From NCBI GenBank assembly GCA_003553905.1, contig PWEA01000005.1:7915-71914 (forward strand): a stretch of 64,000 nucleotides of DNA, in the 5' to 3' direction. The notes below the pieces were generated by a model, which saw only the letters and a list, made by a program, of their open reading frames with translations, did no database searches and was not told where the DNA came from. The number at the start of each line of letters is the position of its first letter. The first letter of the stretch is position 1. Positions 5,349 through 44,270 of this stretch are shown here, piece after piece. A program made the translations under genes and the position numbers. Origin of the DNA: Candidatus Aenigmatarchaeota archaeon. Lineage in GTDB: Archaea; Aenigmatarchaeota; Aenigmatarchaeia; PWEA01.

Positions 5349-5831
5349 TTACTGTTTGTCGTATTTCTGTATTTCGTCATTCATTATCTCAAGTGCCACA
5401 CCTGCTTTCTGGAATATACTCTTCGTATCCTCGGAAGCATGATAGTCTCTTTCACAAACCACCCTTTCTATCCCAGCGTTGATTATCATCTTCGCACATG
5501 TATAACAAGGAGTCATCCTACAGTATAGGGTCGCACCCTCTATGGATACACCGAGTTTAGCTGCCTGTACAATTGCATTTTCTTCTGCGTGGCTTGTTCT
5601 TACACAGTGTTGGCTTGAAGAACCATCCTCATGAGTAACTTCCTTGAACTTATGACCTACCTCATCACAGTGCGGCATTCCAGAAGGAGCACCTACGTAT
5701 CCTGTGGTGAGTATCCTTTTGTTCCTTGCTATAACACAACCACTCCTACCACGGTCACATGTCGCCCTATCGGCAACCACATCGGCTACCTTCAAAAAGT
5801 ATTCATCCCAACTTGGTCTTTTATCGGTCAT
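5349..5831 (-). CDS. dCMP deaminase (CMP/dCMP deaminase zinc-binding family)
   Basis: HAEENAI zinc-ligand and catalytic Glu motif, then PCYTCA Cys ligands. Confidence 0.8.
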   Translation of the reverse strand: MTDKRPSWDEYFLKVADVVADRATCDRGRSGCVIARNKRILTTGYVGAPSGMPHCDEVGHKFKEVTHEDGSSSQHCVRTSHAEENAIVQAAKLGVSIEGATLYCRMTPCYTCAKMIINAGIERVVCERDYHASEDTKSIFQKAGVALEIMNDEIQKYDKQ

Positions 5832-11130: not shown

Positions 11131-11739
11131 TTATTCCCCGATGAAAGCATTTACCTTTTCTATTATCATTTTCTTTGTATCTTCCAGAGATCCGCTATTA
11201 TCAACAACTACGTTATAATATTTTTTATCTCTGACATCTATACCATACTTTTCCTTGTATGTTTTAATATCTTGTGAGTTCCTTCTCTCCAGTCTCTCAT
11301 CTGCCTCATCAGGTGTCATTTTTTCCCTTTCAGCCAGTCTTTCTACTACAACGTCTCTAGAACACTCGACAAGGATCCTAACCTCTGCTATGTCGCACAA
11401 CAACGCTCCTGTAAGTCTTCCCTCGATAACAACATCATCCTTCGTAAAAGCCAGTCCGAGCACCCGTCTGTCCCACATAAGATCCGGATCTGGACCAACA
11501 TCAGGATTTCTATATTTGTCAAAGAAATCAGGAAGATCTAGGTCCTTTTCTTCTGCCTTCCTGCGAAAAAATGTTCCTGAAGAAATCAGATCCATTCCAA
11601 GTTCATCGGAAAGAATCTCTGCAACAGTGCTACTACCAACCCCAACCAGTCCAGAAACTGTAACTACCCTTTCTGAAGATGGACCATGCTCATCTCTAAG
11701 CTTAGTCTCGTACTCTTTGAGCCTTTCAACACACGTCAC
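11131..11739 (-). CDS. cmk: Archaeal-type cytidylate kinase-like protein with degenerate P-loop
   Basis: The architecture ISSGTFFRRKAEE..DRRV..DDVVIEGRLTGAL matches archaeal CMP kinases. The P-loop reads GLVGVGSST instead of GxxGxGKTT, so the lysine is absent. Confidence 0.5.
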   Translation of the reverse strand: MTCVERLKEYETKLRDEHGPSSERVVTVSGLVGVGSSTVAEILSDELGMDLISSGTFFRRKAEEKDLDLPDFFDKYRNPDVGPDPDLMWDRRVLGLAFTKDDVVIEGRLTGALLCDIAEVRILVECSRDVVVERLAEREKMTPDEADERLERRNSQDIKTYKEKYGIDVRDKKYYNVVVDNSGSLEDTKKMIIEKVNAFIGE

Positions 11740-11846: not shown

Positions 11847-12035
11847 TTGATAATAACGTTAAGGGATCTTGCAAAGTGCAAAAGATGTGGATCCTCAAAC
11901 ACAATTGCTGAGATGGTTATTCCTTCAAGGGACTTGGATAAACTAAGGGGTAGCGCTGAAGAAGAAATAGTAGAGATATCATGCAAAAGCTGTGGAAAAA
12001 TTGATAGAAGAGATCAAAAGATAGAGATAGAATAG
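11847..12035 (+). CDS. Small zinc-ribbon protein
   Basis: 62 aa with CKRCGS...CKSCGK. Confidence 0.35.
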   Translation: MIITLRDLAKCKRCGSSNTIAEMVIPSRDLDKLRGSAEEEIVEISCKSCGKIDRRDQKIEIE

Positions 12036-12057: not shown

Positions 12058-13311
12058 GTGGAAATGAAAAGCATAGAAATTAAAGAACCAGATGTAGTTG
12101 TAAGTGAATTTCCATCACACCCGGAGCACAGTGACTGGGGCCCAAAGGAGTCTGTTGTTTATAATACGAGAATATCAGGCGATCCCAAAGGACGTTCTGC
12201 GATTGAAATATGGAAAAACAAAAAAGAATCCATGGGAAAAAAGGAGCTGTTGGAAGAGGAGGAAGGCTTTCTGGAATTTCTAGCAGAGAGGGGACACATA
12301 TCTGCATTCTACAGGACCAACGTGGGAATAACCTACAAAGTCCCAAGGCATACGACACTTTTTTTCTGCTCCTTCGATCATCCAAAATATATGCAGCAGT
12401 CACAGAGGTATACAAAGGCTAAAGAGTTCATAAGCTTGATAGATTCCACTGAAGCTAAAGAGATGTTCTCAAAACAGTCACAGTTATATAACAAGATGAT
12501 AGAAAACAAGTCCATACCAAAGGAAGATGCTAGATATATACTTCCGCTAGGCACAGCAGCAACACATCTACATCAAAACACAAACATAGCAGGACTTATG
12601 AATATATACCGCGTCCTTAGATCCAATGGATCCGAGGTACCTGATATGACTGAAGATATATTCAAAGACTGTATAGGAAAACTTGAGGAGCTGGAACCCA
12701 GTCTTTTCAATGAAAAAATAATGAACCTGCTCATGGGTGCAGATAAGGGATACCCTGTTGCTAACATGTTCTCACAAAAAAATGAATGGGTCGATAAGGC
12801 ACTAAAGAATCACAGGTCCTGTGATGTAGTATCACGTTTCACATACGAAGTAACAGAAAAACTGAAAAACAAAGCAGATGGGTTCAACGATGAAGCATTG
12901 AGTTTTCTAAACCTGAATAATAGTCCTCTGAAAGTCGAAGGCTATGTTACAACCATGTCGATATCAGCCTGGCACCAGTTTATGAGAAATGACACTGTAA
13001 AGAACTCCGTAGAATCCATATACAGTGCAGCAGATAGAGGGAAGATGGTTATACCACCAAAAATCAAAGATTCGGAATTTGAAGAGGATTATATAGATAT
13101 TTTCGAGGAGTCTTTGAAACTATACGAATCATTGAAAAAACAGAATGGGAGAAGCACTGCGATCGAAGTCCTACCACACGGTCTTGGTATAGGTGTAGCA
13201 TTCGGTCTTGATGGCTTCAACAGGATCAAAGGATTTTTACCGGACAGAACACAAGAAGCTGCGCAGTGGGAAATAAGAGCCATAGCAAGAAAAGTAGCAA
13301 AAGAGCTTTAG
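12058..13311 (+). CDS. ThyX (Thy1-domain, flavin-dependent thymidylate synthase)-like protein with large insertion
   Basis: Blocks match ThyX: ERGHISAF (cf. HGHETPFEH), FDHPKYMQQSQRY (cf. RHRIASYNELSGRY), EDARYILPLGTAATHLHQNTNIAGLMNIYRVLRS (cf. [32 protein letters not shown]), and C-terminal AAQWEIRAIA (cf. HAQWEIQQYALAI). A ~200-aa insertion separates the last two blocks. Confidence 0.5.
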   Translation: MEMKSIEIKEPDVVVSEFPSHPEHSDWGPKESVVYNTRISGDPKGRSAIEIWKNKKESMGKKELLEEEEGFLEFLAERGHISAFYRTNVGITYKVPRHTTLFFCSFDHPKYMQQSQRYTKAKEFISLIDSTEAKEMFSKQSQLYNKMIENKSIPKEDARYILPLGTAATHLHQNTNIAGLMNIYRVLRSNGSEVPDMTEDIFKDCIGKLEELEPSLFNEKIMNLLMGADKGYPVANMFSQKNEWVDKALKNHRSCDVVSRFTYEVTEKLKNKADGFNDEALSFLNLNNSPLKVEGYVTTMSISAWHQFMRNDTVKNSVESIYSAADRGKMVIPPKIKDSEFEEDYIDIFEESLKLYESLKKQNGRSTAIEVLPHGLGIGVAFGLDGFNRIKGFLPDRTQEAAQWEIRAIARKVAKEL

Positions 13312-13321: not shown

Positions 13322-13804
13322 TTAATCCAATAAGAAGCTATCGTCCTTGAACTGATTAAACTTCCTATCGGGCTCTTCTTTTTTGAGTATAGCATCCGAA
13401 ATATCTTCACGGAGCTTGTTCAAACTTTTGTAATATTTTCCTACTTCCGGAACACCTTTAGATGGATTCTCTTGATTATCAAGAAAACCATCAGGAAGGT
13501 TTTCAAAGGCCTTGTTGTAGTCAAGCAGATCTTTATCGATCTGTATTTCGTCGTGACCCACTCTCTTGCCTCTAAAGGGTATCTCATAACAGGAAACCTC
13601 CACACTACTTTCTTTGTGTTGTCTTAGCTCAACGTTCCATCTTTCTGCATCTCTGTATATTATAACTCCTTGATCTCTGCTTGGATTTGTAGCATACACC
13701 TCTGCTAAAAAACTATCCGTGTCCGTGTCACTATACTGCTTCTCCAAACCCTTCTTTACTGCATCATCAACATCTTTCCTCATAGATCCAAGTCCCTGTG
13801 TCAT
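13322..13804 (-). CDS. Hypothetical protein
   Basis: The ORF in the track runs to 14164, but its upstream 120 codons are low-complexity and overlap the next gene. Internal ATG at 13804..13802 (MTQGLGSMRK..) gives a compact 161-aa protein. Confidence 0.45.
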   Translation of the reverse strand: MTQGLGSMRKDVDDAVKKGLEKQYSDTDTDSFLAEVYATNPSRDQGVIIYRDAERWNVELRQHKESSVEVSCYEIPFRGKRVGHDEIQIDKDLLDYNKAFENLPDGFLDNQENPSKGVPEVGKYYKSLNKLREDISDAILKKEEPDRKFNQFKDDSFLLD

Positions 13805-13903
13805 TTTAATTACCCCATAGTAATAATTTATAATAAAATATTTATATATCCCACACAGAATTGAAGACTTAAATCCATAGAAAAGGAAATTTTTCTGGGT
13901 AGG

Positions 13904-14962
13904 ATGACAGATAAAGCAAAACATATTGACTGGGGAGTTTTCGACGTAAACCAAGGCCTCGATCACGCGGCCGCCTCTGAAATTGTCTATGTAATAAACA
14001 ACTATAGACCCGTAGAAAAAACGTTTGCCTATGCAGCTAAAAACAGAGAGTATAGAGATATCCTTCGTCGTGCAGGTGAAGTTGATCGGGATATAGAAAA
14101 AGAAATAGGAAAATCTTACAACCCAGAAAAAAGTATTCTTGACAAAATACGTTATAAAACACACAGATTTGTCAGCGGACTTTTCGATTCTTATACAGAC
14201 GATGTCTTCTCAATGTTAATGAAAAAGAGGCCATATAAAAAGGGTGCTGTGATGAATACTGTATGTGAAAGTGCTGTGGAAAGTTTTGATGAAAACCCTG
14301 AAATATACAGAGACATGATCGAGGATCAGTATGTGGATTCAAAAAAAGTATCTCATATAGCACTCGGGATTGATGAAGAAACGGACAAGAAGACCTTGGA
14401 ACTTCTAAAAGAGCCAGAAACCAAAAAACTTATGGACGACTATAAAAAATACACAACTCCATCCGTCCTAGACGTAAGACTGCTTTCCATCGAGCCAGAA
14501 AGATCATTTGAAAGACTTGAACAGATAGAAGTCATAAACAAAGAAATAGTAGAAGAAGGATATAATATGGATCCGATGTTGAAGTCCGTTCCAATGATGA
14601 CATACAAGGCCTTTGAACTTGAAATCGATGAAATACAGAACTTTGTAAAAAATACAAGCTCTATGGACAAGTTTGTCCGAAATCTAGACAAATTTCTTCT
14701 GGAAAGTGATGAGAAAAGGGCAGATTTAGCCATCGAAAGCGCAACAAAGCTTATTTCAGAAGACCTGGACACATACGATAAAAAATCAATCAAAATGGCT
14801 TCTACGGCCTTGCCCTATGATATGGATAAAGTAACTGAAATGATGTATGATAAATACAAAAACCCCACGAAATACTCAAAGAAAGAAGAGTTATCGGAAA
14901 TGGATTGGAGAGGAACCGTGGAAAAAATAACAAAGGACAACGAACATCCACGGGTTTTTTAG
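13904..14962 (+). CDS. Hypothetical protein
   Basis: 352-aa ORF with coding-like composition and no recognisable motif. Confidence 0.5.
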   Translation: MTDKAKHIDWGVFDVNQGLDHAAASEIVYVINNYRPVEKTFAYAAKNREYRDILRRAGEVDRDIEKEIGKSYNPEKSILDKIRYKTHRFVSGLFDSYTDDVFSMLMKKRPYKKGAVMNTVCESAVESFDENPEIYRDMIEDQYVDSKKVSHIALGIDEETDKKTLELLKEPETKKLMDDYKKYTTPSVLDVRLLSIEPERSFERLEQIEVINKEIVEEGYNMDPMLKSVPMMTYKAFELEIDEIQNFVKNTSSMDKFVRNLDKFLLESDEKRADLAIESATKLISEDLDTYDKKSIKMASTALPYDMDKVTEMMYDKYKNPTKYSKKEELSEMDWRGTVEKITKDNEHPRVF

Positions 14963-16092: not shown

Positions 16093-16911
16093 TCAACAGA
16101 GATTTGAAAGTGAATGCAATATGGTCTTCGCAGCTAGATGTGCTGTCCTGTTGTTAAGCCTCTTTGAAGCTACCTCACATAAATCCATACCAACGACTTC
16201 CTTCTCAAAAACAACATCTATAAGACTGAAAACCTCACGTGGACTCATGCCATCTTCCTCCGGGAAACCCACGTCGGGGGCAAACGATGGATCAAATACA
16301 TCCATATCCACTGTCAGATATATCGGACCCTTTGCCTCCCTTATATCTTTCTTCACACCGTCTTCGTCCATATAACTTTTACCTGTTTCCTGATCCTCCG
16401 TATAGCTTCTACATCCAACTCGGATAACCTCTGTGTCGTCTTCACTTACATTCGAAGCCCATGTATTATGTGAAAACTTGTTGCCTTGGTAGTCTTTGGC
16501 CATATCAAGATGTGCATCCATCTGGACAACGGTACTAGGTTCAAGTTCCTGAACGATTGGAAGGGTTATAGAATGTTCTCCTCCTATGAAAACGAAGAAT
16601 ATATCAGAGTTTTCATCCAAAATATCACAAACTGTATCCTTTATCCTCTCGGACGTCTTGTCAAAACACCCAGGTACCCATTCAATATCACCTATATCAG
16701 ATATCTTCAAATCTTTCAAGGGATTTTTCTTTTTGTCGGGCACATAACTCACCTTTGTTTTTAGGGCCTGTCGAACTGTAACTGGTCCAAATCTCTGGTT
16801 TCCCTCTGCAAGGGCGGTGGAATCAAATGGGATTCCAAGAAAACATACATCGGCCTCGTCTAATGGATATCTTGCTGTAAACGAACTTCGTGTATAAAGC
16901 ATATCATTCAT
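16093..16911 (-). CDS. speB: Agmatinase (arginase/ureohydrolase family)
   Basis: GGEHSITLPIV, DAHLD and DMDVFDPSFAPDVG manganese-binding motifs. Confidence 0.8.
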   Translation of the reverse strand: MNDMLYTRSSFTARYPLDEADVCFLGIPFDSTALAEGNQRFGPVTVRQALKTKVSYVPDKKKNPLKDLKISDIGDIEWVPGCFDKTSERIKDTVCDILDENSDIFFVFIGGEHSITLPIVQELEPSTVVQMDAHLDMAKDYQGNKFSHNTWASNVSEDDTEVIRVGCRSYTEDQETGKSYMDEDGVKKDIREAKGPIYLTVDMDVFDPSFAPDVGFPEEDGMSPREVFSLIDVVFEKEVVGMDLCEVASKRLNNRTAHLAAKTILHSLSNLC

Positions 16912-16962
16912 TTTATTACCCGGAGAACTGTTTAAACGGAAGGTTAATAACTTTTACGCAGC

Positions 16963-17277
16963 TCAGTCAGATGTAAGACTTTTCAGAAATTTTACGTACT
17001 CCTTTGAATCTTCTAATGCATGTTTTCTGTCTTCTATCATCTCTTCCTGAGAAGAAAATCCATTTCCCTCGAGGCTAACACCGACATCATCCACCTCTAT
17101 TTTTACCTTGTATGACTTCTCTTCATCCTTCTCAAATTCCGAGAAACTGTCTCCATAGATCACGCCTTTGACACAGTTGCGTATATACTCACTTCTGTTC
17201 ATGCCAAGTAACTCTGCCCTTTGATCTATATCATTCTCAAAGTCCTTCCCTAGACGAAGACTTATCTTATTTCCCAT
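16963..17277 (-). CDS. Ribbon-helix-helix (CopG-like) DNA-binding protein
   Basis: N-terminal ISLRLGKDFENDIDQRAELLGMNRSEYIRNCV fits the RHH beta-alpha-alpha pattern. Confidence 0.5.
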   Translation of the reverse strand: MGNKISLRLGKDFENDIDQRAELLGMNRSEYIRNCVKGVIYGDSFSEFEKDEEKSYKVKIEVDDVGVSLEGNGFSSQEEMIEDRKHALEDSKEYVKFLKSLTSD

Positions 17278-17350
17278 AAACCAACAAATAAAAACTAAAG
17301 CTTAAATTAGTTTCCTTTAGAAAAAGAAATAAGAAAGGGGTCGAGGCTTG

Positions 17351-17743
17351 CTACTTCTTTTCCTTGAGAAGTTTGTCACCCATGACCTCCCAATATTCTA
17401 CTTCATCTCCTTCGCCTAAATCACAGCTGTAGTCGTCTGGAATAGCCATTTCAAATGTATCGTAGGTTTCGAGGTCCATCAGTTGAACAGAATCACTTTT
17501 TATCGAAATGACCTGACCAACCTTCTTGTCTATTATTGGTACTTTGATCTTTGCATCAGAAGGTTTTACGATCTGCCTTTTCTTTCCGTCCACAATTCCC
17601 TTTGTTCTCAGTCTGACTTTTGTTGAGCCATGTTTCCCAGCAGAAGAAGTTTTTCTCTTTGTTGCTACACAAGGCTCTCCTTCTATAACTATGTAGTCGC
17701 CTTCCTTTACATTCTTTATCTGGTCTTGTTTCGTTGGCATCAC
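17351..17743 (-). CDS. eif5a: Translation initiation factor 5A (aIF5A)
   Basis: TSSAGKHGSTKVRL hypusine loop (GKHG) and an OB-fold C-terminus. 130 aa. Confidence 0.85.
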   Translation of the reverse strand: MMPTKQDQIKNVKEGDYIVIEGEPCVATKRKTSSAGKHGSTKVRLRTKGIVDGKKRQIVKPSDAKIKVPIIDKKVGQVISIKSDSVQLMDLETYDTFEMAIPDDYSCDLGEGDEVEYWEVMGDKLLKEKK

Positions 17744-33578: not shown

Positions 33579-35861
33579 GTGGTTCAAATGCCATGTGATT
33601 ACGAATACAACCAAAAGGAAAATAAAATAGAAGTAAACTGCTCTGGATGCATCTACGGAAGTAGTGTAGCTGACTACGAGGAGTGTATGGCGAACACAAT
33701 CGATAAAATTCTTGAAGTAAAAGGAGTAGAATCGATTGTATTCAAAAACAGCCGTGAACACGAGTATCCGTATGAGCAGACAAAGCTCCTTGTAGAGATA
33801 GCCCAGGTTCTTAAGGATCTGACCAAAGACAAGGGTCTAAGGAAACTAAAGAAGCTAGATGTACCGGGCTGCAACAAATATTTCCGGGAAAAATATTCGG
33901 AGCTACAGAATATAATCCTCGAAGAACTGAGCAAGGACCCAATAGGTACGTACATACATCTCAAAAGAAAGATAAGGCATCTCAAGATCCAATTAAAGGA
34001 AAATAAGGGTGGTTCACAGAACGAGTGCAGAGAAAAGTACATGAACAAAATACTTATACCAATAAAGGACGAGATCGAGAACACGGGAATGATACAGGGG
34101 GTTAAAAACCAACTTTCCGGATATCGACCAGGCAGGAGAGACGCCTACAGAGAGCTTTTTTACCCTTCTGTACGACCAAACTTCATGCGGACAAAATACA
34201 TGAGACAAGCCCCCGAAGAAGGTAAGAAGGTAGAACATTATGATGTAGGAACTTCTGATGTAGATATATACAGACTGCCTGAAGAAACCAGGCCTCTATA
34301 CCACTTTTCCCCTCCCGAGTTCAAACTCGAGGAGGAAGAATATAAGATACTAGACGAGGCTCAGAGATATATCAGCGAGCATAGACCCGAAACTACCGAG
34401 TTTGCAGAGTCGAAGAGAACCAGGGAAGTTTTCACATCAATATGCAGGGACCTGGTGAAAGACATAGCGGATAATAAGAAAACTGTACTGGAAACCGATC
34501 AGGTCGAAAGACTCACAACCATACTAGGTAGATATACAGGTGGTTTGGGGATACTTGAAGCACTCCTGGAGGACAAAAGAATCCAAGACATATACATAAA
34601 CTCACCAATAGGAAACAAACCGATCTTCGTCAACCACGAAAAATATGGAGAATGCAAAACAAATATAATACCCACCCAAGACGATGCAGAAAGCTGGGCA
34701 ACAAAACTAAGACTTTCGAGTGGAAGACCATTGGACGAAGCCAATCCGGTTCTTGATGCATCCATAGAGGTACCCGGAGGAAGTGCAAGGATAACGGTCA
34801 TAGCTCCCACGCTTTCACCTGAAGGTATTGGTTTTGCTATAAGAAGACACAGAGAAGATCCATGGACATATCCACTGTACTTGAGACCGGATATAAACTA
34901 TATAAATCCACTTTTTGCAGGTCTCATGAGCTTCATAATCGATGGTGGACGTACGTTCCTCGTTGGGGGTGGAAGGGGTTCTGGAAAAACATCACTTCTC
35001 GGAGCCTCGATGCTTGAAATGAAGAGAGACTGGAGGATACTTACAGCAGAGGATACATTAGAGCTACCAGTCGAAAGGCTCAAAAGGCTTGACTACGATG
35101 CACAGAGATTAAAGTCAAGGTCTGTTATAACCCAGGTAGAAACCGAACTTCCTGCGTCGGAAGCAATACGAACGGCCCTTCGTCTGGGTGATTCAGCACT
35201 AGTTATAGGTGAAGTAAGGAGCACGGAAGCAAAGGCCCTCTACGAAGCCATGCGTATAGGAGCGATGGCTAAAACGGTCGCCGGTACTATACATGGTGAA
35301 TCAGCATACGGTCTTTTCGACCGTGTTGTAAACGACCTCGGAGTCCCAAAGACATCTTTCAAAGCTACAGACATCGTAGTTATATGCAACAGGATAAAGA
35401 GCGCATCCGGTCTCGAGGAAATAAGAAGAGTAACAAGTGTTACTGAAGTAAGAAAACACTGGTCCGATGATCCCAGGGCAGAGGATGGATTTGTTCCTCT
35501 TATGAAATATTCGGCAGAAGATGACGAGTTAAAACCGACCGACACTCTACTAAACGGTGAGTCAGAGGTTCTGAATAAGATATCTTCACAGGTCAAGGAC
35601 TGGGCAGGAAGGTGGGATAGGGTCTGGGAAAATATAGAGCTCAGGGCTAAGGTTAAAAAAGCCATAACCGACTATGCACTCGAAACAGGTGAAGAAGATC
35701 TAATGGAAGCCCCGTTTGTTGTCAAGAGCAACAGCAAGTTCCGCCTTATCATGGACGAGGTAAAAAAGAAGACAGGTTACATAGACCCGGATGAAACCTT
35801 CGATAAGTGGGAACAATGGCTCAAGGATCAGATAAAGACTGGTGAATTTAGGAATGTTTAA
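33579..35861 (+). CDS. Type II/IV secretion-system ATPase (FlaI/TadA/PilB/VirB11 family) with extended N-terminal region
   Basis: Walker A GGGRGSGKTSLLGA, Asp box ILTAEDTLEL, GEVRSTEA and a TIHGE His box. 760 aa from the GTG at 33579; the alternative ATG at 33588 would be leaderless. Confidence 0.8.
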   Translation: MVQMPCDYEYNQKENKIEVNCSGCIYGSSVADYEECMANTIDKILEVKGVESIVFKNSREHEYPYEQTKLLVEIAQVLKDLTKDKGLRKLKKLDVPGCNKYFREKYSELQNIILEELSKDPIGTYIHLKRKIRHLKIQLKENKGGSQNECREKYMNKILIPIKDEIENTGMIQGVKNQLSGYRPGRRDAYRELFYPSVRPNFMRTKYMRQAPEEGKKVEHYDVGTSDVDIYRLPEETRPLYHFSPPEFKLEEEEYKILDEAQRYISEHRPETTEFAESKRTREVFTSICRDLVKDIADNKKTVLETDQVERLTTILGRYTGGLGILEALLEDKRIQDIYINSPIGNKPIFVNHEKYGECKTNIIPTQDDAESWATKLRLSSGRPLDEANPVLDASIEVPGGSARITVIAPTLSPEGIGFAIRRHREDPWTYPLYLRPDINYINPLFAGLMSFIIDGGRTFLVGGGRGSGKTSLLGASMLEMKRDWRILTAEDTLELPVERLKRLDYDAQRLKSRSVITQVETELPASEAIRTALRLGDSALVIGEVRSTEAKALYEAMRIGAMAKTVAGTIHGESAYGLFDRVVNDLGVPKTSFKATDIVVICNRIKSASGLEEIRRVTSVTEVRKHWSDDPRAEDGFVPLMKYSAEDDELKPTDTLLNGESEVLNKISSQVKDWAGRWDRVWENIELRAKVKKAITDYALETGEEDLMEAPFVVKSNSKFRLIMDEVKKKTGYIDPDETFDKWEQWLKDQIKTGEFRNV

Positions 35862-37938
35862 GGGCGATAAGGATGACCGCAAAGAAGAGATAAAAAGACT
35901 TCTGGAAAGAAGAAACGAAGGACTCCGGATGCCCGAAAGCAGAAAAAGAACATTCACATCGAGGGAGTACGAAACATTCTTAAAAGAGGAACAGAAGCAG
36001 AGGAAACTATCACTTTACGAAAAACTATGTAATATTGCCGAAAATATAATAGTCGTAGAGCCGTCCGATGAAAAGAGGGAGGAGATGGAACGGTCAATAG
36101 ATATGACCTACATGAATATAACCCCTGAGGGGGCCTACTCTCTAGCCATTCTGTCCGGTATCGGCATCTTTGTCACTGCGATATTACTTATGGTACTGGG
36201 TCTTGCCTCGATAATATTTGGTCTCCTCATGTTTATACTGGGTGGTGTATCAATATACCTCCTCGCAGAATATCCAAATTCGGAGGCCAGGCTTTTCCGG
36301 GTCAAAGCTGCCGATCAGATTATGCTTGCTGTGATATACATGGTCATATACATGCGTACTTCTCCTAACCTCGAAGGTGCAGTTAAATTCACCGCCAAGC
36401 ATCTAGGAGAGCCCCTTTCACTTGATTTCAAAAAACTGCTCTGGGATGTAGAAACCCGAAACTATGTTTCGATGAGGGAAGCCCTTTCCGCCTACCTGGA
36501 AAAGTGGGAAGACAACAAAACCTTCGTGGAAGCTATACAGATAATAGAAGACTCGATGCAACAAGCCGGAGAAAAAAGAAAAAGAATGCTCAACGAAGCA
36601 ATAAACACGATGATGACAGGCTCAAGAGAGATGATGAAAAACTACTCAAACAAACTCGAACTTCCTATACTCGTAATACACGCCCTCGGTATAATGCTTC
36701 CTATCATGGTTCTGATAATGTTCCCTATAATAATGCTTATGCTTGAAGAAACTATCCGGCCTGCGTTTCTCATTCTGGGCTACAATGTTATACTACCGCT
36801 CATAATATATCTAACAGGAAAAAGAACGCTGGAGTACAGGCCGATGGGATTTTCTGAGCCTGACATATCAAAACATCCGGACCACATTCCCTCTGGAATG
36901 ATAAACATCGCAGGTAAGGAGATAAAGATATGGCCTATATCTGTTCTTCTGTCGGTTCCTGTGATAATTACCGGTATCTATCTGGTTAACTTCTACGCAG
37001 GTACAGATATATCAACTCAGCTCTACACGTCAATAATCATAACCATCGGAATAGCACTGGGTCCTTCGAGCTACTTCTACCTCGACTCCAGCGCTAAGCT
37101 CAAGATAAGGAAGGAGGTGAAGGATATCGAGGATGAATTTTCGGAGTCTCTTTTCTCACTGGGTAATATACTCAAGCTGGGTAAGCCAATGGAGAGGGCC
37201 ATGGAAGAAGCTGCTGTAAAAAATAAGGATATGGACATATCGAAGATGTTCGATATAGTCGTAAACAATATCAAAAAGGGTGGGATGAACATCAGGAAGG
37301 CTTTTTTCGATGATGAATACGGTGCAGTGTGGCATTATCCTTCGACACTCATAATATCCGTCATGAAAATCGTCATAGATGCGACAAAAAAGGGTTCCGA
37401 TATTGTCTCTAGGTCAACTATATCAATATCAAAGTATCTACAACAGCTCGATGAGATAGAAGAAGACCTGAAAAATATGCTCTCTTCGGAGACTACTTCT
37501 ATGCAGTTCCTGGGAACGTTTCTTGGACCCTTTGTGGCAGGTGTTTCTGTGGCCATGGCTGCTATAATGATATCAATATTCCAAGGTGTGGGTGGTTCAT
37601 TGGATGCACTGGCAGGAACCGGAACCTCACCCGGTGTTGGAGGTCTAGGTGGGATGGGACTCAATGAAGGCCTAGTAGGTGGATGGGGTTCAGCAGAAAA
37701 TATGATACCCATATCATGGATACAGGTTGTCGTAGGTCTCTATGCTATCCAGACATCCTACCTTCTTTCTATGCTAACATCCGGCATAGAAAACGGTCCC
37801 GGTGACCAAATAAAGAAAAGACAGTCCGCAGCAATTATGATAATGATAGGTGTAATAGTCTACGGTGTTTCAATTGCTGTGGTTTGGCAAATATTCGGAG
37901 GGCAGATATCTGAACTTCTAGCAGCAACCATAAACTGA
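35842..37938 (+). CDS. FlaJ/TadC-like polytopic membrane platform protein
   Basis: 698 aa. Cytoplasmic helical domains alternate with clusters of TM helices, the two-T2SS_F-domain layout. Overlaps the ATPase by 20 nt, suggesting translational coupling. Confidence 0.7.
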   Translation: MNLGMFKGDKDDRKEEIKRLLERRNEGLRMPESRKRTFTSREYETFLKEEQKQRKLSLYEKLCNIAENIIVVEPSDEKREEMERSIDMTYMNITPEGAYSLAILSGIGIFVTAILLMVLGLASIIFGLLMFILGGVSIYLLAEYPNSEARLFRVKAADQIMLAVIYMVIYMRTSPNLEGAVKFTAKHLGEPLSLDFKKLLWDVETRNYVSMREALSAYLEKWEDNKTFVEAIQIIEDSMQQAGEKRKRMLNEAINTMMTGSREMMKNYSNKLELPILVIHALGIMLPIMVLIMFPIIMLMLEETIRPAFLILGYNVILPLIIYLTGKRTLEYRPMGFSEPDISKHPDHIPSGMINIAGKEIKIWPISVLLSVPVIITGIYLVNFYAGTDISTQLYTSIIITIGIALGPSSYFYLDSSAKLKIRKEVKDIEDEFSESLFSLGNILKLGKPMERAMEEAAVKNKDMDISKMFDIVVNNIKKGGMNIRKAFFDDEYGAVWHYPSTLIISVMKIVIDATKKGSDIVSRSTISISKYLQQLDEIEEDLKNMLSSETTSMQFLGTFLGPFVAGVSVAMAAIMISIFQGVGGSLDALAGTGTSPGVGGLGGMGLNEGLVGGWGSAENMIPISWIQVVVGLYAIQTSYLLSMLTSGIENGPGDQIKKRQSAAIMIMIGVIVYGVSIAVVWQIFGGQISELLAATIN

Positions 37939-37987
37939 GGGAGGAAAACAATAAAAACAAGGTAAAACAAGGTTTACCTAGGTCCAC

Positions 37988-39286
37988 ATGAAGCCGCTCA
38001 ACGACCAGATAGGAGCTTCAACTCTTATCATGATAATAGCCGGGGTAATAATAATACTCATAGCGGGCAGCTTTGCAACAGTACTGATGAGTCGTATTGC
38101 CCAAGACGTACTTGGACAAAGTGTCATGTGTGATACTTTTTGTTCGATGCAGTCTACTGTTAAAGAAGTGACAACACTGGATATGATACCAAGCCCCGGA
38201 CTTACCGGTACACTTGGTTATATTGCCATAGGGGCTGTAATAGGTTCGGTGGTACCGGGAATAGGAACCGCGATAGGAGCAGCGATAGGAGCAATTGTTG
38301 GAGTTGCTATAGCCGCAGTACAACATTTTGCAAGCTGGCTGGGAAGAGATGATGAAGATGTTGCAAGAGATCTGGCAATAGACTACTTGGTTCGCCCCGA
38401 AGGCATGGGTTGTTACTGTGGCGTGTCCAATGCCAGAGGAAAGTATATACACTTTCTGACACCCGGTCCTAGCTCAACCAGGCCACATGTGGCCGAGTTC
38501 CATCTAACAGACCAAACTCCGGAAAAACATCTCCAAGAAGAGATAATAGATACAGATGGAAACACTATATTCAAACACGGTGGTTATGGCCAAAAAAGTA
38601 ACTGTGAAGATGAACTTAGTAAAATAGATGAACTTGACAACGGTGAATACTTAGTCGAACTCGATATATATCCAGGGTGCATAATACTATCAACGACCGA
38701 TGACAACTGTGCAATATGGGCATTCAATGAAACCTTTGCAATAACCAATGAAGAAGGAAAGTCCATAAGGGAACAGGCTGAAGAACAGGATAAAATAATA
38801 TTCGCTAGCACGATAAGGTCCGATGACCCCGTAAACAGCCTGGGTATCGCAGAAGAGATAGAGGCAAGTGGCAGACACGAGTCCCAGAGGATGCTCCTCG
38901 AGCATTACGAAGAAGGTATACACCCATTCCAAGTTCACGTCCCTGTAGTTTGTAAATCTGAAGAAAGAACTGAAAGGCGTGTCCAGGATCCACTTGACAG
39001 GGCATGTAGAGAACAGTGCCATGACGGAAACGCACTTCTATGGGCTTCTAGGTGTTTCGAAGAACCAGAAGATGCCGGGGAAACCTACTATTCACTGGAA
39101 GAAGATTTTCTTCCAGAAGAATATGATGACACCAGAGACTTATGCCCTATGGAAGACGAAGACAACGGAGATGAAGACGGGGGGGAAGATGAAAACAACA
39201 ACGAAGATCGCGGTTATCCCTTCTGTCTCTGTAACACTCCTCGAAGTTATTCATGGGAACTGGACGAAGAATACGCAGAAATATAA
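37988..39286 (+). CDS. Pilin-like protein with Cys-rich acidic extracellular domain (family 1, paralog A)
   Basis: N-terminal hydrophobic helix. Motifs shared with family-1 paralogs: C.TFCSMQ, GMGCYCGV, YIHF, HLTDQTP, DGNTIF, SQRMLL, VVCKS, CREQC, LCP, PFCLC, SWELDEEY. An extra Gly-zipper hydrophobic segment (GAVIGSVVPGIGTAIGAAIGAIVGVAIAAV) is unique to this copy. Confidence 0.65.
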   Translation: MKPLNDQIGASTLIMIIAGVIIILIAGSFATVLMSRIAQDVLGQSVMCDTFCSMQSTVKEVTTLDMIPSPGLTGTLGYIAIGAVIGSVVPGIGTAIGAAIGAIVGVAIAAVQHFASWLGRDDEDVARDLAIDYLVRPEGMGCYCGVSNARGKYIHFLTPGPSSTRPHVAEFHLTDQTPEKHLQEEIIDTDGNTIFKHGGYGQKSNCEDELSKIDELDNGEYLVELDIYPGCIILSTTDDNCAIWAFNETFAITNEEGKSIREQAEEQDKIIFASTIRSDDPVNSLGIAEEIEASGRHESQRMLLEHYEEGIHPFQVHVPVVCKSEERTERRVQDPLDRACREQCHDGNALLWASRCFEEPEDAGETYYSLEEDFLPEEYDDTRDLCPMEDEDNGDEDGGEDENNNEDRGYPFCLCNTPRSYSWELDEEYAEI

Positions 39287-39307
39287 TATCTTGAATTTGT
39301 GATGTAA

Positions 39308-40408
39308 ATGATTGACGAAAAAGGTGGTTCCTTATTACTCATAATAGTTGTAGGTATAATATTATCCCTGATCGTTGGTTCTTTGATGACCGGTGCATTT
39401 AGTGTGGTGGTGAGAACCGTAATCGGAACCGACCTGTCGTGTCCTACATTCTGTGCAGTTCAAGCAGACATAGAGGAGTATAGCATGGCAGATATAATGC
39501 TACCATCGATTCTACCATTCATAGAGGAAAGCTCTGAGGCAACGGCTCATAAAATAGCAGACTGGATAATACAACCGGAAGGGCTTGGCTGTTACTGCGG
39601 CGTCAAAGCAAGAAGTGGAAGATACATCCACTTCCATACAGGTTCACCTGGAGAAAGGTACATAAGAGAGCTTCACTTGACGGACCAAGATCCACATATA
39701 CATCTAGACTATCATGTCAGTGATTCCGATGGAAACACGTTGTTCGACCACAGCTTCGACAAGAGCAGCTGTGAGGAAGACATAAGTAACATAGAAGAAG
39801 TACAGTACTATCAAACCGTTGGCTGTGTAATCGTGGTTAACTCCGAGGGAGGGTACTGCTCTATACATGTAATAGGAGAAGGTTCAGTTATAGAAAACAA
39901 CATAGGTGAAAGCATACACGATCAGGTTGAAATAAAGGAAACATTGACGACAAACTATGAAGACAACGATCCCATTTCATTTTTTAAAATCGGCGACAGA
40001 TACAGCGTACCTCGATTTGCATACGGGACAGGAGATGTCCTGACCTACACGATAGGAACCCAGCCCTACCAGCACGATTCCCAACGAATGCTCCTCCGGG
40101 ACTACGACGAATACCTAGGAGCTAAGTTCGCTCTCTATGCTCCTGTTGTCTGTAGGGCATCAACAAGAGAAGGACAAGATACTCAGACAGAACTCGATGA
40201 AAAATGTAGAAAGCAATGTAAGGAAGACGATAAGATTTTCTTCTCTTCTGCATGCCAAGATATCCCCAGGGAAGGTTATGACATGCTACGTGACGAATAC
40301 CGCGAAGACACTCTCTGTGAAAAGGATGACGAGGGCCCATACTGCAGATGTGTGCACGAGAAACGATACTACTGGGAGGTAGACGAAGATTATTCGAGAG
40401 AAGAATGA
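39308..40408 (+). CDS. Class III signal-peptide (type IV pilin-like) protein with Cys-rich domain (family 1, paralog B)
   Basis: MIDEKG then GSLLLIIVVGIILSLIVGSL. Shared motifs SCPTFCAVQADIEEYS, GLGCYCGV, YIHF, HLTDQDP, DGNTLF, SQRMLL, VVCRAS, CRKQC, LCEK, PYCRC, YYWEVDEDY. Confidence 0.7.
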   Translation: MIDEKGGSLLLIIVVGIILSLIVGSLMTGAFSVVVRTVIGTDLSCPTFCAVQADIEEYSMADIMLPSILPFIEESSEATAHKIADWIIQPEGLGCYCGVKARSGRYIHFHTGSPGERYIRELHLTDQDPHIHLDYHVSDSDGNTLFDHSFDKSSCEEDISNIEEVQYYQTVGCVIVVNSEGGYCSIHVIGEGSVIENNIGESIHDQVEIKETLTTNYEDNDPISFFKIGDRYSVPRFAYGTGDVLTYTIGTQPYQHDSQRMLLRDYDEYLGAKFALYAPVVCRASTREGQDTQTELDEKCRKQCKEDDKIFFSSACQDIPREGYDMLRDEYREDTLCEKDDEGPYCRCVHEKRYYWEVDEDYSREE

Positions 40409-40447
40409 AAAAGTTAAAAACTAAACGAAAACCTATTAAATGATAAT

Positions 40448-40561
40448 ATGGAAGTAAGTATGTCTGTCTTGCTCTGGGTGATTGTAGCCTTTGCTCTGTT
40501 TGTATTTGTAGTAATATTTACCGGTATGTTTTTCGCCGACACGTTTGGAATTTTAATATAA
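40448..40561 (+). CDS. Possible 37-aa hydrophobic micro-protein
   Basis: MEVSMSVLLWVIVAFALFVFVVIFTGMFFADTFGILI is a single TM helix lying between two pilin genes, below the ORF-track cut-off. Confidence 0.2.
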   Translation: MEVSMSVLLWVIVAFALFVFVVIFTGMFFADTFGILI

Positions 40562-40572
40562 TCAAGGATACT

Positions 40573-41850
40573 ATGATCGATCAAAAGGGAGCATCAGTAA
40601 AGGCACTCTTCGTAATCATAATTGTAATGGTGGGTGCATGGGTTTTAATACAAAGTATTGGTCCTATAACCAAAGCTGCCATGGGAACCGAAGTATCCTG
40701 TCCGCTTTTCTGTGATATACAGTCAGGTATAGAAGACTACTCGAGATGGGCATGGTGGCCGGGGTGGCTTGGAGGAAGTGTAAGCTGGTCCGATATATTC
40801 AAAAATGAACTAAGAAGAAACATGGTAGCACCTAAATCAATGGGATGTTACTGTGGTGTACAGGAAGAAAGAGGAAAGTTTATCCATTTCCAGGGGAGTA
40901 CCAGTAGTATACGCGAATTCCACATGACGAATCAGGATCCATTGGTACATCTTAGCCTTGAGGCCGGTCCATTTGACCACAGGCCTACTTCATCGCAAAT
41001 TCGTAATATGTGTCGATCCATCATAGAAGATTACGGAGAAGAGTTCAGTCCACCTGTATACGATCAAAGCGATCTCAATAGAGTTCAAGCATGCATGATT
41101 GTTTCAGAATCACCGGGTTGTGCAATATGGAGATTTGAAGAGGGTTTTGTCATTAGGAGAGACTCTGATGATTCTATATGGGAACAGGCACAGGAACAGG
41201 GAAAAGACATAGGCTTTTTTTCCTTTAATAGAGACGAAGACCCTGTTTCGGATCTAAGCATAGGTGAAACTGTGTATGTATCGGGATCAAAGGACCCCTC
41301 CCAACGGATGTTACTCCAAAAATACGAAAGCGGCGATCAAGATTTCAATCTCTCTGCATCCGTGGTATGTAAAAGTGTTAGAATGGATGAATCTATGCCC
41401 ACAAACGAACTAGACAGGGCTTGCAACGAATACTGCTCGGATGAAAATCTTTTCTTCATGAATTCTAACTGCCTAGAGGAGAGGAGAGGTGGTTATGATA
41501 TCCTTCCAGAAGAATACATAGAAAATGGGAGGGATAAACTCTGCCCTGAAGGAAGAGAACTTCCCTTCTGTCTCTGTGCAGGAGAAAAGGACTACTACTG
41601 GGAAACATACTGGGAAGATTTCTACACAGTAACGGTAGAAACCCAAGGTAGTGGAAATGTGGACATAAGCCCCGACCTGGACGAGTATCACGAAGATCAG
41701 GAAGTATCATTGGAAGCAGAAGCGTACAACGATTGGGAATTTAGCCATTGGGAAGGAGATCATCCACATGGACAAAAAGAAGATGCAGAGATAACGATCA
41801 CGGTAGATGGAGATATGGAAGTAACTGCAGTATTCGAATCGACATCATAG
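40573..41850 (+). CDS. Class III signal-peptide protein with Cys-rich domain (family 1, paralog C) and C-terminal InlB B-repeat-like domain
   Basis: MIDQKG then ASVKALFVIIIVMVGAWVLI. Shared motifs SCPLFCDIQSGIEDYS, MGCYCGV, FIHF, HMTNQDP, SQRMLL, VVCKS, CNEYC, LCPEG, PFCLC, YYWE. C-terminus YTVTVETQGSGNVDISPDLDEYHEDQEVSLEAEAYNDWEFSHWEGD..ITITVDGDMEVTAVFE fits the divergent InlB B-repeat pattern. Confidence 0.7.
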   Translation: MIDQKGASVKALFVIIIVMVGAWVLIQSIGPITKAAMGTEVSCPLFCDIQSGIEDYSRWAWWPGWLGGSVSWSDIFKNELRRNMVAPKSMGCYCGVQEERGKFIHFQGSTSSIREFHMTNQDPLVHLSLEAGPFDHRPTSSQIRNMCRSIIEDYGEEFSPPVYDQSDLNRVQACMIVSESPGCAIWRFEEGFVIRRDSDDSIWEQAQEQGKDIGFFSFNRDEDPVSDLSIGETVYVSGSKDPSQRMLLQKYESGDQDFNLSASVVCKSVRMDESMPTNELDRACNEYCSDENLFFMNSNCLEERRGGYDILPEEYIENGRDKLCPEGRELPFCLCAGEKDYYWETYWEDFYTVTVETQGSGNVDISPDLDEYHEDQEVSLEAEAYNDWEFSHWEGDHPHGQKEDAEITITVDGDMEVTAVFESTS

Positions 41851-41910
41851 GACAGGTCGTGGATTAAAACTTATAATACGCGGTAAACATACATAATAGG
41901 GAGATGTTCC

Positions 41911-42093
41911 ATGAATACGGATTCAAAAAGCCTCTTTTCCAGAGGTGAAATAAGTATACAGGCCCTGGTAGTGATAATTCTAATGTTGATAGGGATCATA
42001 ATCATTGTTATAATATCATCGGGCGTCGGTGACTTTGGAGGAGATGCGTCTTCGACTATAATGGAATATTTAGCAGATGCTATAGGTGCATAA
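41911..42093 (+). CDS. Short pilin-like protein (60 aa)
   Basis: SLFSRG then EISIQALVVIILMLIGIIIIVI. Almost entirely the signal/helix segment, so a candidate structural pilin. Confidence 0.5.
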   Translation: MNTDSKSLFSRGEISIQALVVIILMLIGIIIIVIISSGVGDFGGDASSTIMEYLADAIGA

Positions 42094-42097
42094 AGTT

Positions 42098-42250
42098 ATG
42101 GTACATAATAAAAAGGGGTTCATAAGTTTCGCTATGATTGTGATCATAGTTCTTATAGCTCTAACGGTCGGTATTCTGCTTATACACACCTTTTGGGGAG
42201 GCGGTGAAGGATTGTTAAACCTACTCATCCAAAGGCTTCAACAGGTATAG
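42098..42250 (+). CDS. Short class III signal-peptide pilin (50 aa, not in ORF track)
   Basis: MVHNKKG then FISFAMIVIIVLIALTVGILLIHTFWGGGEGLLNLLIQRLQQV. Textbook archaeal prepilin N-terminus. ATG at 42098, TAG at 42248..42250. Confidence 0.5.
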   Translation: MVHNKKGFISFAMIVIIVLIALTVGILLIHTFWGGGEGLLNLLIQRLQQV

Positions 42251-42259
42251 GTATAAAAT

Positions 42260-42406
42260 ATGTCTACATTTAGCGACACATTAACTGTTTTCGAAAACAA
42301 TACAAAGATAATATTTGCCTTAGTGGTGTTTGCTCTGCTTATAGGCATACTTTACTACACGATAGGTCCTATAATAGATACATTACTGGGGGCTATAGGT
42401 TATTGA
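42260..42406 (+). CDS. Small membrane protein (48 aa, not in ORF track)
   Basis: MSTFSDTLTVFENNTKIIFALVVFALLIGILYYTIGPIIDTLLGAIGY. Single TM helix, no KG cleavage motif. Confidence 0.35.
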   Translation: MSTFSDTLTVFENNTKIIFALVVFALLIGILYYTIGPIIDTLLGAIGY

Positions 42407-42407
42407 T

Positions 42408-43124
42408 ATGAACGTAATCAACAAAAAAGGTTCAAGATCACAGAGTGAGTTCATATTTCTTGCAATAAAGGCAGTGATAGGTATCTTGGTTATAGGAATT
42501 GTTGCCTTGAGTGTTAGGGGCATGGAAACAGGCTGCAGTACACATGACGAAAATCCAACGGCATGTATAAGAAATACCGAATGCAGGCCTGCAGTTAGAA
42601 GAAAGAGAAACATATTCACGTTCTATATTGATCCTGCTCGTACCATAGACCTAATCTACCATACAAAAATAACCGGTGATATAGAATGCCGAGACGCGAT
42701 AAGGACTCCTAACAACAGATACCACGCCGCAGAGGATGCTCAGTGTGTATGTCCTGTTGGATGGGAAGTAATTTTAGACAAGGATGATCAGTACTACGGA
42801 GTCTGCAGACTACCAGGAACTAACGACTATCACCCATGCGAGTATCCACCAGACGGCGAACAGCAAGAAGCAGAATTCAAAGACATGTGTGAAGATGGAG
42901 ACAGATACCACGGAGAAGTCTGGATCGACGGAACAGATGAGGAAGCTCCAAATATGTGCTGCGATGATGGAGATACAAAGGAATGTGACTCCGATAACAT
43001 AGACGAAGAATGTGGCGATTTGGTTTGTATTGAAATAGAGGTCGAGGACGAAGACGGAGAAGAGGAAGAAACCACTTTCTGGATAGAAGAAGAAAGCGTA
43101 CCTGATATAGAATACTTCCTTTAA
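42408..43124 (+). CDS. Class III signal-peptide protein with Cys-rich acidic domain (family 2, paralog A)
   Basis: MNVINKKG then SRSQSEFIFLAIKAVIGILVIGIVAL. Shared with the next gene: ETGCSTHDENPTACIRNTECRPAV, GDIECRDAIRTPNNRYHAAEDAQCVCPVGWE, YYGVC, YHGEVWIDG..MCCDDGDTKECD. Confidence 0.7.
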   Translation: MNVINKKGSRSQSEFIFLAIKAVIGILVIGIVALSVRGMETGCSTHDENPTACIRNTECRPAVRRKRNIFTFYIDPARTIDLIYHTKITGDIECRDAIRTPNNRYHAAEDAQCVCPVGWEVILDKDDQYYGVCRLPGTNDYHPCEYPPDGEQQEAEFKDMCEDGDRYHGEVWIDGTDEEAPNMCCDDGDTKECDSDNIDEECGDLVCIEIEVEDEDGEEEETTFWIEEESVPDIEYFL

Positions 43125-43151
43125 AATACACAAAATAAAAGATGAAGCGGA

Positions 43152-43802
43152 ATGTTTTCAAAAAAAGGTACTGCTAAATCGCAGGAAGAAACACTTTGGT
43201 TTATAATCAAGATAGCTATAATGTTGATAGGAATGGTAGTTTTGATTGTTTCTTTACTCGAGATGGAGGCAGGCTGCAGTAGACACGATGAAAATCCATC
43301 GGCATGTGTAAGCGATGAAAACTGCAGACCCGCAGTTAAAACATTTGACCTAGGATGGGGTTTATATGGTTTCTCTCAAATCGAAGTAGTGGGTGAGATC
43401 GAATGCCGGGAATCTGTGAGAAAACCCAATACAAGATATCATGCAGCCCAAGATGGAAAATGCGTATGCCCTGGTTTCTGGAACGAAATCATGGACAGGG
43501 ACCATGACTACTTTGGTGTGTGTTATACTGAATATGACGGAGAAGAAATGTACTATCCATGCCAGTACGGCCTGGATGTTCAGGCTGAGGAAATAAAAGA
43601 CAGATGCGATACCGACAACGGTCTTAGAATGCACGGAGAAGTATGGGGCTCCGGTTGGAATGTTCCAGATAGATGCTGCGACGATGGTGAAGTAAAGAAA
43701 TGTGGGATAGATAAAAGAGGTGAAACTTGTGCAGACCATACCTGTAAATCCGGTCCAGCAATGCATGATGTTGTTATAGTCAACTACTATTGGCAGCCAT
43801 AA
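43152..43802 (+). CDS. Class III signal-peptide protein with Cys-rich domain (family 2, paralog B)
   Basis: MFSKKG then TAKSQEETLWFIIKIAIMLIGMVVLIV. EAGCSRHDENPSACVSDENCRPAV, GEIECRESVRKPNTRYHAAQDGKCVCPGFWNE, YFGVC, MHGEVWGSG..RCCDDGEVKKCG. Confidence 0.7.
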   Translation: MFSKKGTAKSQEETLWFIIKIAIMLIGMVVLIVSLLEMEAGCSRHDENPSACVSDENCRPAVKTFDLGWGLYGFSQIEVVGEIECRESVRKPNTRYHAAQDGKCVCPGFWNEIMDRDHDYFGVCYTEYDGEEMYYPCQYGLDVQAEEIKDRCDTDNGLRMHGEVWGSGWNVPDRCCDDGEVKKCGIDKRGETCADHTCKSGPAMHDVVIVNYYWQP

Positions 43803-43847
43803 ACCACATTTACACCTTTCAAAAAGATTTAAACGAACACGACAAAG

Positions 43848-44270
43848 TTGTATATGATGAACACCCCAGCAAAGGGCATAGGCGTAGGAAAGTCTCTTAT
43901 GTTAATATTGATACTGGTAGTACTCATATTTACAACGGTCGTAATAGGTGACATCTTTACATCTGTTCTTGGTATGGGTATAGGAGATGAGTTCCACCTC
44001 ACAATGGGTGAGTTGTCTGTATCCTACACTACATCTAGCTCTTTTCAGGAAAAAACAGAAATAGAAGAAAATCTTCCGATGGCCTGCGAAAGAGTTGTAT
44101 TTAGAAACAACACACTAAAGGCTTATCTAGAACATGATGAATTCTACTTCGTTTCCTACACTACACAGGAAATGGATGAAGATTTCGAGGTAGAATGTGA
44201 TTCCTTTGGTGGGGTGAAGTTTATTGACGGGAGGATTGAAGCCTCTAGCCCGGTTGATGGAACATTGTGA
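43848..44270 (+). CDS. Class III signal-peptide (pilin-like) protein
   Basis: MNTPAKG then IGVGKSLMLILILVVLIFTTVVIG. 140 aa. Confidence 0.6.
   Translation: MYMMNTPAKGIGVGKSLMLILILVVLIFTTVVIGDIFTSVLGMGIGDEFHLTMGELSVSYTTSSSFQEKTEIEENLPMACERVVFRNNTLKAYLEHDEFYFVSYTTQEMDEDFEVECDSFGGVKFIDGRIEASSPVDGTL

Follow-up and report, generated by a model that had tools for sequence, protein, structure and literature searches.

A tandem fusion of two degenerate ThyX domains in an Aenigmatarchaeota genome, predicted to build a thymidylate synthase site from both halves

Many microbes have no thymidylate synthase other than the flavin-dependent enzyme ThyX (also FDTS), which is under study as a target for antibiotics and whose active site is unusual in that three subunits contribute to it. 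A 64,000-nt stretch of DNA from a Candidatus Aenigmatarchaeota archaeon (contig PWEA01000005.1; hereafter the window) carries a ThyX-like gene at 12058..13311 on the plus strand that lacks an intact RHR motif in its expected place, and the question raised by this locus is whether such a protein could still make thymidylate, and if so, how. A preliminary description, made from the letters alone, saw here an altered catalytic motif and a ~200-residue insertion, and wavered between a highly divergent functional ThyX and a ThyX-fold paralog with another role. The analysis reported here favours function, though with a different anatomy: the motif is divided between two domains, and the single chain probably works as a flavin-dependent thymidylate synthase whose active site is a composite.

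The coding sequence is an uninterrupted open reading frame (ORF) of 417 aa when read from the GTG at 12058. The ATG at 12064, with AGGTG 5 nt upstream of it, is the likelier and probably the true start, and the 415-aa product that begins there is 100% identical to database protein P0001. Residues of the query protein are counted from 12058 throughout, and the prefixes Tm and Mtb mark the numbering of the Thermotoga maritima and Mycobacterium tuberculosis enzymes. Antisense ORFs of 64-111 aa within the gene are short and unsupported and were discounted.

That the protein is related to ThyX, as had been proposed, is borne out: the Pfam family Thy1 (PF02511) matched the whole protein in 2 stretches (3.8e-31, 108.8 bits; gathering cut-off 24.8), its relatives in the PDB by sequence were single-domain ThyX proteins only, and searches by sequence and by fold together returned nothing from the PDB but ThyX and PolB. 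The named orthologs all come from metagenome-assembled genomes (MAGs) of Aenigmatarchaeota (DPANN) and are annotated as synthases dependent on flavin adenine dinucleotide (FAD), i.e. as FAD-dependent thymidylate synthase. Their alignment, at 40-70% identity to the query, has 51 invariant columns and a mean column identity of 55%.

Scanning the two halves separately gave an answer to what the middle of the protein is. The N-terminal domain (aa 1-215; 12058..12702, plus strand) and the C-terminal domain (aa 216-417; 12703..13308, plus strand) each match Thy1 on their own and above the gathering score: residues 28-190 of the N half correspond to profile positions 8-170 with 59.4 bits, and residues 296-416 of the C half correspond to positions 62-184 with 53-54 bits, a match that spans the C half's own HQxxR, loop and LP blocks. 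A hidden Markov model (HMM) of canonical ThyX, made from 7 sequences including T. maritima TM0449 (identical in sequence to PDB 1kq4_A), likewise placed two domains in the query, at aa 57-219 and 297-415, and the N half reached position 204 of this model, which gives it a degenerate C-terminal helix of its own. The supposed insertion between the ARxxLP block and the AQWEIR helix thus has to be given up: together with AQWEIR, it is the second ThyX domain. BLASTP found no similarity between the N and C halves (E = 16), and hhalign aligned them weakly but in the correct register (E = 0.011, probability 3.8%). The duplication is visible only by way of the canonical ThyX profile, the halves being too diverged to recognise one another directly, and for this reason the middle looks by eye like an unrelated insert.

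Structure prediction pointed the same way. An AlphaFold model from 28 orthologs was confident, with a predicted local distance difference test score (pLDDT) of 91.4 and a predicted template modelling score (pTM) of 0.89; the predicted fold is that of ThyX only, with the ThyX order of secondary structure elements present twice. Foldseek of the full model against the PDB returned only ThyX and PolB chains among the top 50, all of 188-246 residues and with a probability of 1.00, and every one of them spanned roughly half of the query (TMq ~0.37, TMt up to 0.74). When the C half was modelled alone (pLDDT 88.3), its top PDB matches were all ThyX with a probability of 1.00 and up to 201/205 columns aligned, and the model identifies it as a diverged ThyX fold. 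No solved chain with two ThyX domains was present among the top 50 Foldseek matches or among all PDB sequence matches. Judged by its profile matches, then, the gene encodes a ThyX-ThyX tandem fusion of two degenerate domains.

How degenerate each domain is, and in which places, was assessed by mapping known catalytic residues onto the query and counting them in the 28 orthologs. In the N domain, R38-I-S40-G-D42 (12169..12183, plus strand, as for all motifs here) is the by-eye counterpart of Tm R28-V-S30-F-D32, which holds the folate-loop residue Ser30; S40 shows no variation, and conservation is at least 90% at I39 and D42. G79-H80-I81-S82 (12292..12303) maps by HMM to Tm G52-H53-E54-T55, with the His and the Ser each retained in 27/28 orthologs; GHISAFYR does stand in place of the GHE..FEH block, as had been noticed, and both the HMM and the ortholog alignment show the His to be kept. 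R97 (12346..12348), invariant in the family and 8 residues before the RHR position, is the by-eye counterpart of Mtb R87, an equivalence that I infer from motif spacing. The RHR position itself is degenerate: the HMM alignment puts S105-F106-D107 there (12370..12378), and only one ortholog in 28 has an Arg at the first position. The preliminary description was therefore right that RHR is missing here, and its reading of the replacement as DHP was two residues out of register. The active-site loop S115-Q-R117-Y118 (12400..12411), equal to Tm S88-G-R90-Y91, is present in 28/28 orthologs, as is R159 (= Tm R147) in E156-D-A-R159-Y-I-L-P163 (12523..12546), the counterpart of the Tm ARxxLP block.

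The C domain is worn in other places. Its counterpart of 'HQLVRHR' is W305-H-Q307-F-M-R310-N311-D312 (12970..12993), in which the HMM alignment equates Q307 with Tm Q75, R310 with R78, N311 with H79 and D312 with R80; Q307, R310 and D312 are each found in 28/28 orthologs, and the position of N311 is Asn in 23, Gln in 4 and His in 1. The active-site loop is degenerate: S320-I-Y322 (13015..13023) retains the Ser and the Tyr, and the Arg90 position is deleted (a gap in 28/28). At the Tm R147 position the HMM alignment shows Ile369. R397 (= Tm R174), followed by A402-Q-W-E-I-R407 (13246..13278), is again universal among the orthologs together with QWE. HMMER also aligns a non-conserved Arg of the N domain, R188, to Arg174 in the query and in 3 other orthologs.

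Expressed in Tm numbers, the N domain keeps S88, R90, Y91 and R147 in 28/28 orthologs and H53 in 27/28, with R78 in only 1/28, and the C domain keeps Q75, R78, R174 and QWE in 28/28, with R90 and R147 in 0/28. The full set for binding deoxyuridine monophosphate (dUMP) and for catalysis (Tm R78, S88, R90, Y91, R147, R174 and H53) occurs once per chain, as R310, S115, R117, Y118, R159, R397 and H80. A contiguous RHR-x7/8-S is found in neither domain, the N domain reading S105-F-D...S115 and the C domain R310-N-D...S320, and only the two taken together make up the motif. P0028 is responsible for the single outliers among the N-domain counts. This protein (434 aa) and P0075 (446 aa) have an identical N-terminus of 173 residues and diverge directly after the conserved 'KEDARYILPL', which points to chimeric assembly or to a recombination event at this motif.

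The same split extends well beyond this clade. Of 1.84 billion representative proteins searched with a profile, 2086 matched at E <= 1e-3 and 288 at E <= 1e-10, and about 100 of the best 150 matches were proteins of 400-510 aa, the majority matched over both domains. Named fused members come from Nanohaloarchaeota, Nanoarchaeota, Woesearchaeota, candidate division WOR-3, Stahlbacteria and Acidobacteria, all of them auto-annotated as FAD-dependent thymidylate synthase, and a scan of species-representative genomes that used a bacterial fused subtype as query confirmed at least 583, among them Calditrichia, Syntrophales/Smithella, Nitrospinota, Omnitrophota, Aminicenantes, Elusimicrobiota and Planctomycetia. 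The two-domain ThyX is, in short, a common but little-described architecture. Among 100 fused proteins outside the query clade, the N domain has S88 in 97, R90 in 98 and R147 in 93, and the C domain has R78 in 93, R174 in 99 and R147 in none. Across 196 two-domain sequences, Arg147 is found in 0 C domains and the pair Ser88+Arg90 in 1, so that the N/C split is common to the set; apart from the 28 orthologs, it holds in about 170 fused ThyX proteins of DPANN archaea and many bacteria. Among the positions that never vary in 30 diverse fused proteins (18-38% identity to the query) are S115, R117, R310, R397 and E405, and R159 is conserved in at least 90%.

Not all residues follow one scheme. The query's pattern of domain residues, 'N:H-sp / C:-a---u', is common to its clade, and a comparison of subtypes (P0086, P0102 and P0184; the query; P0119 and P0220) showed that His53 is retained by the C domain in the Woesearchaeota type and by the N domain in the query clade and in the bacterial 'YTEKSQRY' type, and that the domain keeping R165 also varies by subtype. 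This difference implies different arrangements of live sites in the predicted particle. The closest relatives of the query's N and C domains are the matching domains of DPANN-type proteins (151 and 141 bits), followed by single-domain ThyX (43 and 34 bits) and the bacterial fused type (40 and 18 bits). The DPANN fusion looks like one lineage; the bacterial 'YTEKSQRY' fusion, whose domains resemble those of the query no more than single-domain ThyX does, may be independent of it. Another Aenigmarchaeota MAG encodes a fused ThyX of a very different subtype, P0217 (HDD46252.1, 462 aa), at 22% identity to the query, a distance that points to more than one fused lineage in the phylum. The chlamydial ThyX, a biochemically active protein of ~529 aa and so about twice the usual length, may be of the fused type as well; no chlamydial record was among the matches listed, by name look-ups or in the species-representative genome scan. 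If it were of the fused type, the architecture would already have been validated experimentally, which would lower the novelty of the present finding and raise confidence in its function.

Could two such domains complete one another? In the canonical enzyme three subunits meet at each site: for M. tuberculosis, the RHR motif and R199 come from subunit A; S105, R107 and Y108 of the Ser-x-Arg-Tyr loop, along with a further Arg, the dUMP ligand R87, come from subunit C; and the FAD-phosphate contacts S71 and R190 come from subunit B (PMC6514825). In the T. maritima enzyme, R78 stabilises the anionic reduced flavin (FADH-), and H53, supplied by the third monomer, stacks on flavin/folate, with Ser30 as a residue of the folate loop (PMC11940539); R174 serves to activate dUMP, with S88 and Y91 next to the flavin carbinolamine (PMC8316439). 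The split seen in the query agrees with these subunit roles, that of A falling to the C domain and those of C and B to the N domain.

Under the composite-site reading, the C domain would act as 'A' and provide the Arg at flavin N1 and the Arg that activates dUMP: R310 would hold the reduced flavin at N1/O2 and contact dUMP, and R397 would do the activating. The N domain would provide the substrate loop and the phosphate-binding residues: as 'C', its R97, S115, R117, Y118 and R159 would line the methylene donor on its flanks and hold dUMP by the phosphate, and as 'B', its H80 would stack on flavin/folate and its S82 would contact FAD. Two chains would then pair into an N2C2 pseudo-tetramer that mimics the ThyX tetramer with its 222 symmetry, and such a particle would have two live sites instead of four, each combining a single C domain with both N domains; its other two sites would be dead. 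These role assignments are self-consistent if the particle is a 222-symmetric N2C2. The two-domain homology, the complementary and invariant residues and the gene context are direct results, and a dimer with two active sites is deduced from how the residues are divided and from the canonical subunit roles. The fused enzyme would convert dUMP to deoxythymidine monophosphate (dTMP), which thymidylate kinase would then phosphorylate.

The genomic surroundings of fused thyX genes fit this product. In three relatives, the gene directly before the fused thyX, in the same orientation and 27-99 nt away from it, is one for thymidylate kinase (tmk, PF02223): P0018 (49% identity to the query; loci L003/L004), P0012 (52%; L005) and Nanoarchaeota P0066 (22%; L006). 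In the window, a gene of the dCMP (deoxycytidine monophosphate)/cytidine deaminase family with an HAE...PCxxC motif lies at 5349..5831 on the minus strand, 6 kb from thyX, where the preliminary description had put it (PF00383, 84.9 bits); it is also present in the syntenic loci L001 and L002 and is a possible source of dUMP. The adjacency to tmk and the presence of the deaminase support real dTMP synthesis. Neither a further thymidylate synthase nor a tmk turned up in the window when E. coli ThyA, T. maritima ThyX and the three tmk proteins served as tblastn queries, in line with the earlier statement that ThyA is missing there, and Pfam scans of the sizeable window ORFs tested gave no enzymes of folate or one-carbon metabolism. 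The neighbouring genes (histone, aIF5A, geranylgeranyl reductase, class II AspRS) are archaeal.

Several findings weigh against a conventional, FAD-dependent version of this enzyme, and against the composite-site reading as a whole. The NCBIfam equivalog for thyX, TIGR02170, scored 66.2 bits in 3 stretches, below its cut-off of 87.9, and the TM-scores of the C half alone to ThyX were moderate (0.41-0.53). In canonical ThyX, H79, R80 and R165 are basic ligands of the FAD phosphates and ribityl (PMC6514825). The Aenigmatarchaeota clade reads R-N-D in the C-domain motif, with the Asp at the R80 position universal and His at the H79 position in a single ortholog, and R165 is absent from both domains; of the phosphate/ribityl ligand set (Tm H79, R80, R165 and Ser/Thr55), only S82 (= T55) is retained. 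With H79, R80 and R165 lost, flavin binding may differ in kind or in affinity. Other fused ThyX proteins, by contrast, mostly read R-H/Q-R in the C domain (Arg at the R80 position in 87/100) and often keep R165 in one domain. The literature searched, finally, yielded no activity, cofactor or oligomer data for any fused ThyX; no description of a fused ThyX and no ThyX work on DPANN was found, and the reviews searched do not contain the words 'fusion', 'fused' or 'tandem'. The residues that hold the isoalloxazine and dUMP are all retained. Both domains also have a Lys at the Tm S83 position (K110 and K315) and, speculatively, these could compensate for the lost FAD ligands. By fold, profile and catalytic residues the query is best placed within the ThyX superfamily, and it is filed as a variant of the family and not as a canonical member because it falls below the equivalog threshold and has neither a contiguous RHR-x7/8-S motif nor the full set of FAD-phosphate ligands.

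The same losses could be taken further, towards a ThyX-fold paralog with altered chemistry that may still methylate or otherwise modify a pyrimidine nucleotide, but with another flavin (such as flavin mononucleotide, FMN, or one that is loosely bound), another one-carbon donor or another nucleotide, such as uridine monophosphate (UMP) in the case of PolB. The invariant Asp where R80 should be, the loss of H79 and R165 and the equivalog score would all fit, as would the lack of folate and one-carbon genes among the window ORFs tested; the best Foldseek match is nominally PolB (4p5b, E = 4.3e-6), and formaldehyde is described as usable by ThyX in vitro (PMC8316439). However, the residues that recognise and activate dUMP and those that hold the isoalloxazine are invariant without exception, the pairing of tmk with thyX argues for dTMP as the product, and Foldseek scores are equal for PolB and ThyX chains. 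Small DPANN genomes also need some source of dTMP. PolB, a UMP/dUMP C5-methylase of polyoxin biosynthesis (4p5a/4p5b), has the ThyX fold and is a precedent for paralogs of changed specificity, but it is a single-domain protein that sits in a Streptomyces antibiotic cluster alongside a housekeeping thyX; the query belongs to a small archaeal genome, its context is that of tmk (in relatives) and dCMP deaminase, its neighbourhood is one of housekeeping genes with no sign of an antibiotic cluster, and the window has no second thyX. Altered chemistry is therefore rather unlikely. A narrower departure, in which this clade keeps the dUMP chemistry and the two-site pseudo-tetramer but has rebuilt the cofactor pocket for FMN or a metal-bridged or exchangeable flavin versus tightly bound FAD, and may also take its methylene group from a non-folate donor in folate-poor DPANN cells, is also unlikely.

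A non-catalytic protein, be it a duplicate in decay or a regulator that binds nucleotides, might be expected to look as each domain does on its own, with no intact RHR...S motif in either and a score under the equivalog threshold. It would hardly be expected to have so many invariant columns among orthologs so far apart, nor to have as its invariant residues exactly the catalytic ones, split between the domains in a manner that is maintained across phyla and accompanied by operon-like linkage to tmk, and this explanation is very improbable. A single ThyX domain broken by an unrelated insertion of ~200 residues can be dismissed with near certainty, for the direct unlikeness of the halves is its one attraction, and the C half alone matches Thy1, the canonical HMM and the ThyX fold, and the N half runs on to its own C-terminal helix.

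Some further genes of the window deserve mention. A 62-aa ORF encoding a CxxC...CxxC zinc ribbon (11847..12035, plus strand) precedes thyX by 22 nt; the slot upstream of thyX holds a 61-aa gene in L001 and L002 and thymidylate kinase in L003, L005 and L006. Divergent from thyX is a cytidylate-kinase-like gene (11131..11739, minus strand; PF13189, 71.5 bits) that is syntenic in L001 and L002. Just 3' of thyX, the interval 13322..14962 has a 352-aa ORF (13904..14962, plus strand) and a shorter minus-strand ORF, neither of which has a Pfam match, and their position is conserved in L001 and L002. A flavodoxin gene (PF12641/PF12724; 15627..16085, minus strand), 2.3 kb downstream of thyX, is conserved in the same two loci, and a gene of the arginase/agmatinase family lies near aIF5A (16093..17743, minus strand) with a small ribbon-helix-helix ORF between them. 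Further away, 33579..47288 (plus strand) encodes a T2SSE-type secretion/pilus ATPase followed by large ORFs with no Pfam match and by InlB B-repeat and GLUG proteins, and is probably a surface appendage locus. Adjacent genes for an IF-2B family protein (193 bits), a RuBisCO large chain (310 bits) and an AMP-phosphorylase-like protein with Glycos_trans_3N/PYNP_C occupy 55681..59556 (plus strand) and make up the trio of archaeal AMP (adenosine monophosphate)/pentose-bisphosphate nucleotide salvage.

If the composite-site reading of the tandem ThyX is correct, a natural single chain with half a site per domain shows which residues act together. A fused ThyX would also be intrinsically asymmetric, and its live and dead sites could be mutated separately in studies of half-of-sites behaviour, flavin binding and folate access. 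For annotation, the split explains both the sub-threshold scores with the thyX equivalog and the apparent loss of the ThyX motif, and proteins of this kind ought to be annotated as composite enzymes rather than as pseudogenes or paralogs bearing an insert. The finding also supports de novo synthesis of dTMP by DPANN archaea, which are often assumed to depend on a host for their nucleotides.

Set beside the canonical homotetrameric ThyX/FDTS enzymes (T. maritima TM0449, M. tuberculosis, H. pylori and PBCV-1; EC 2.1.1.148), the query has a common fold, family and set of catalytic residues, a site that would likewise be assembled from different ThyX modules, and presumably the same reaction and the same place in the pathway beside tmk and dCMP deaminase; it differs in having two non-identical domains per chain, neither with a complete motif, and a predicted two sites per particle versus four. 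An experimental parallel is that of Leduc et al. 2004 (PNAS 101:7252), who reportedly engineered ThyX heteromers from complementary inactive mutants. There, as is proposed here, a working site arises from modules that each lack different essential residues. Those heteromers were a laboratory mix of separate subunits, whereas the complementation in the query would be natural, covalent and evolutionarily fixed, and the fused ThyX would thereby be the evolutionary counterpart of the mutant-mixing experiments.

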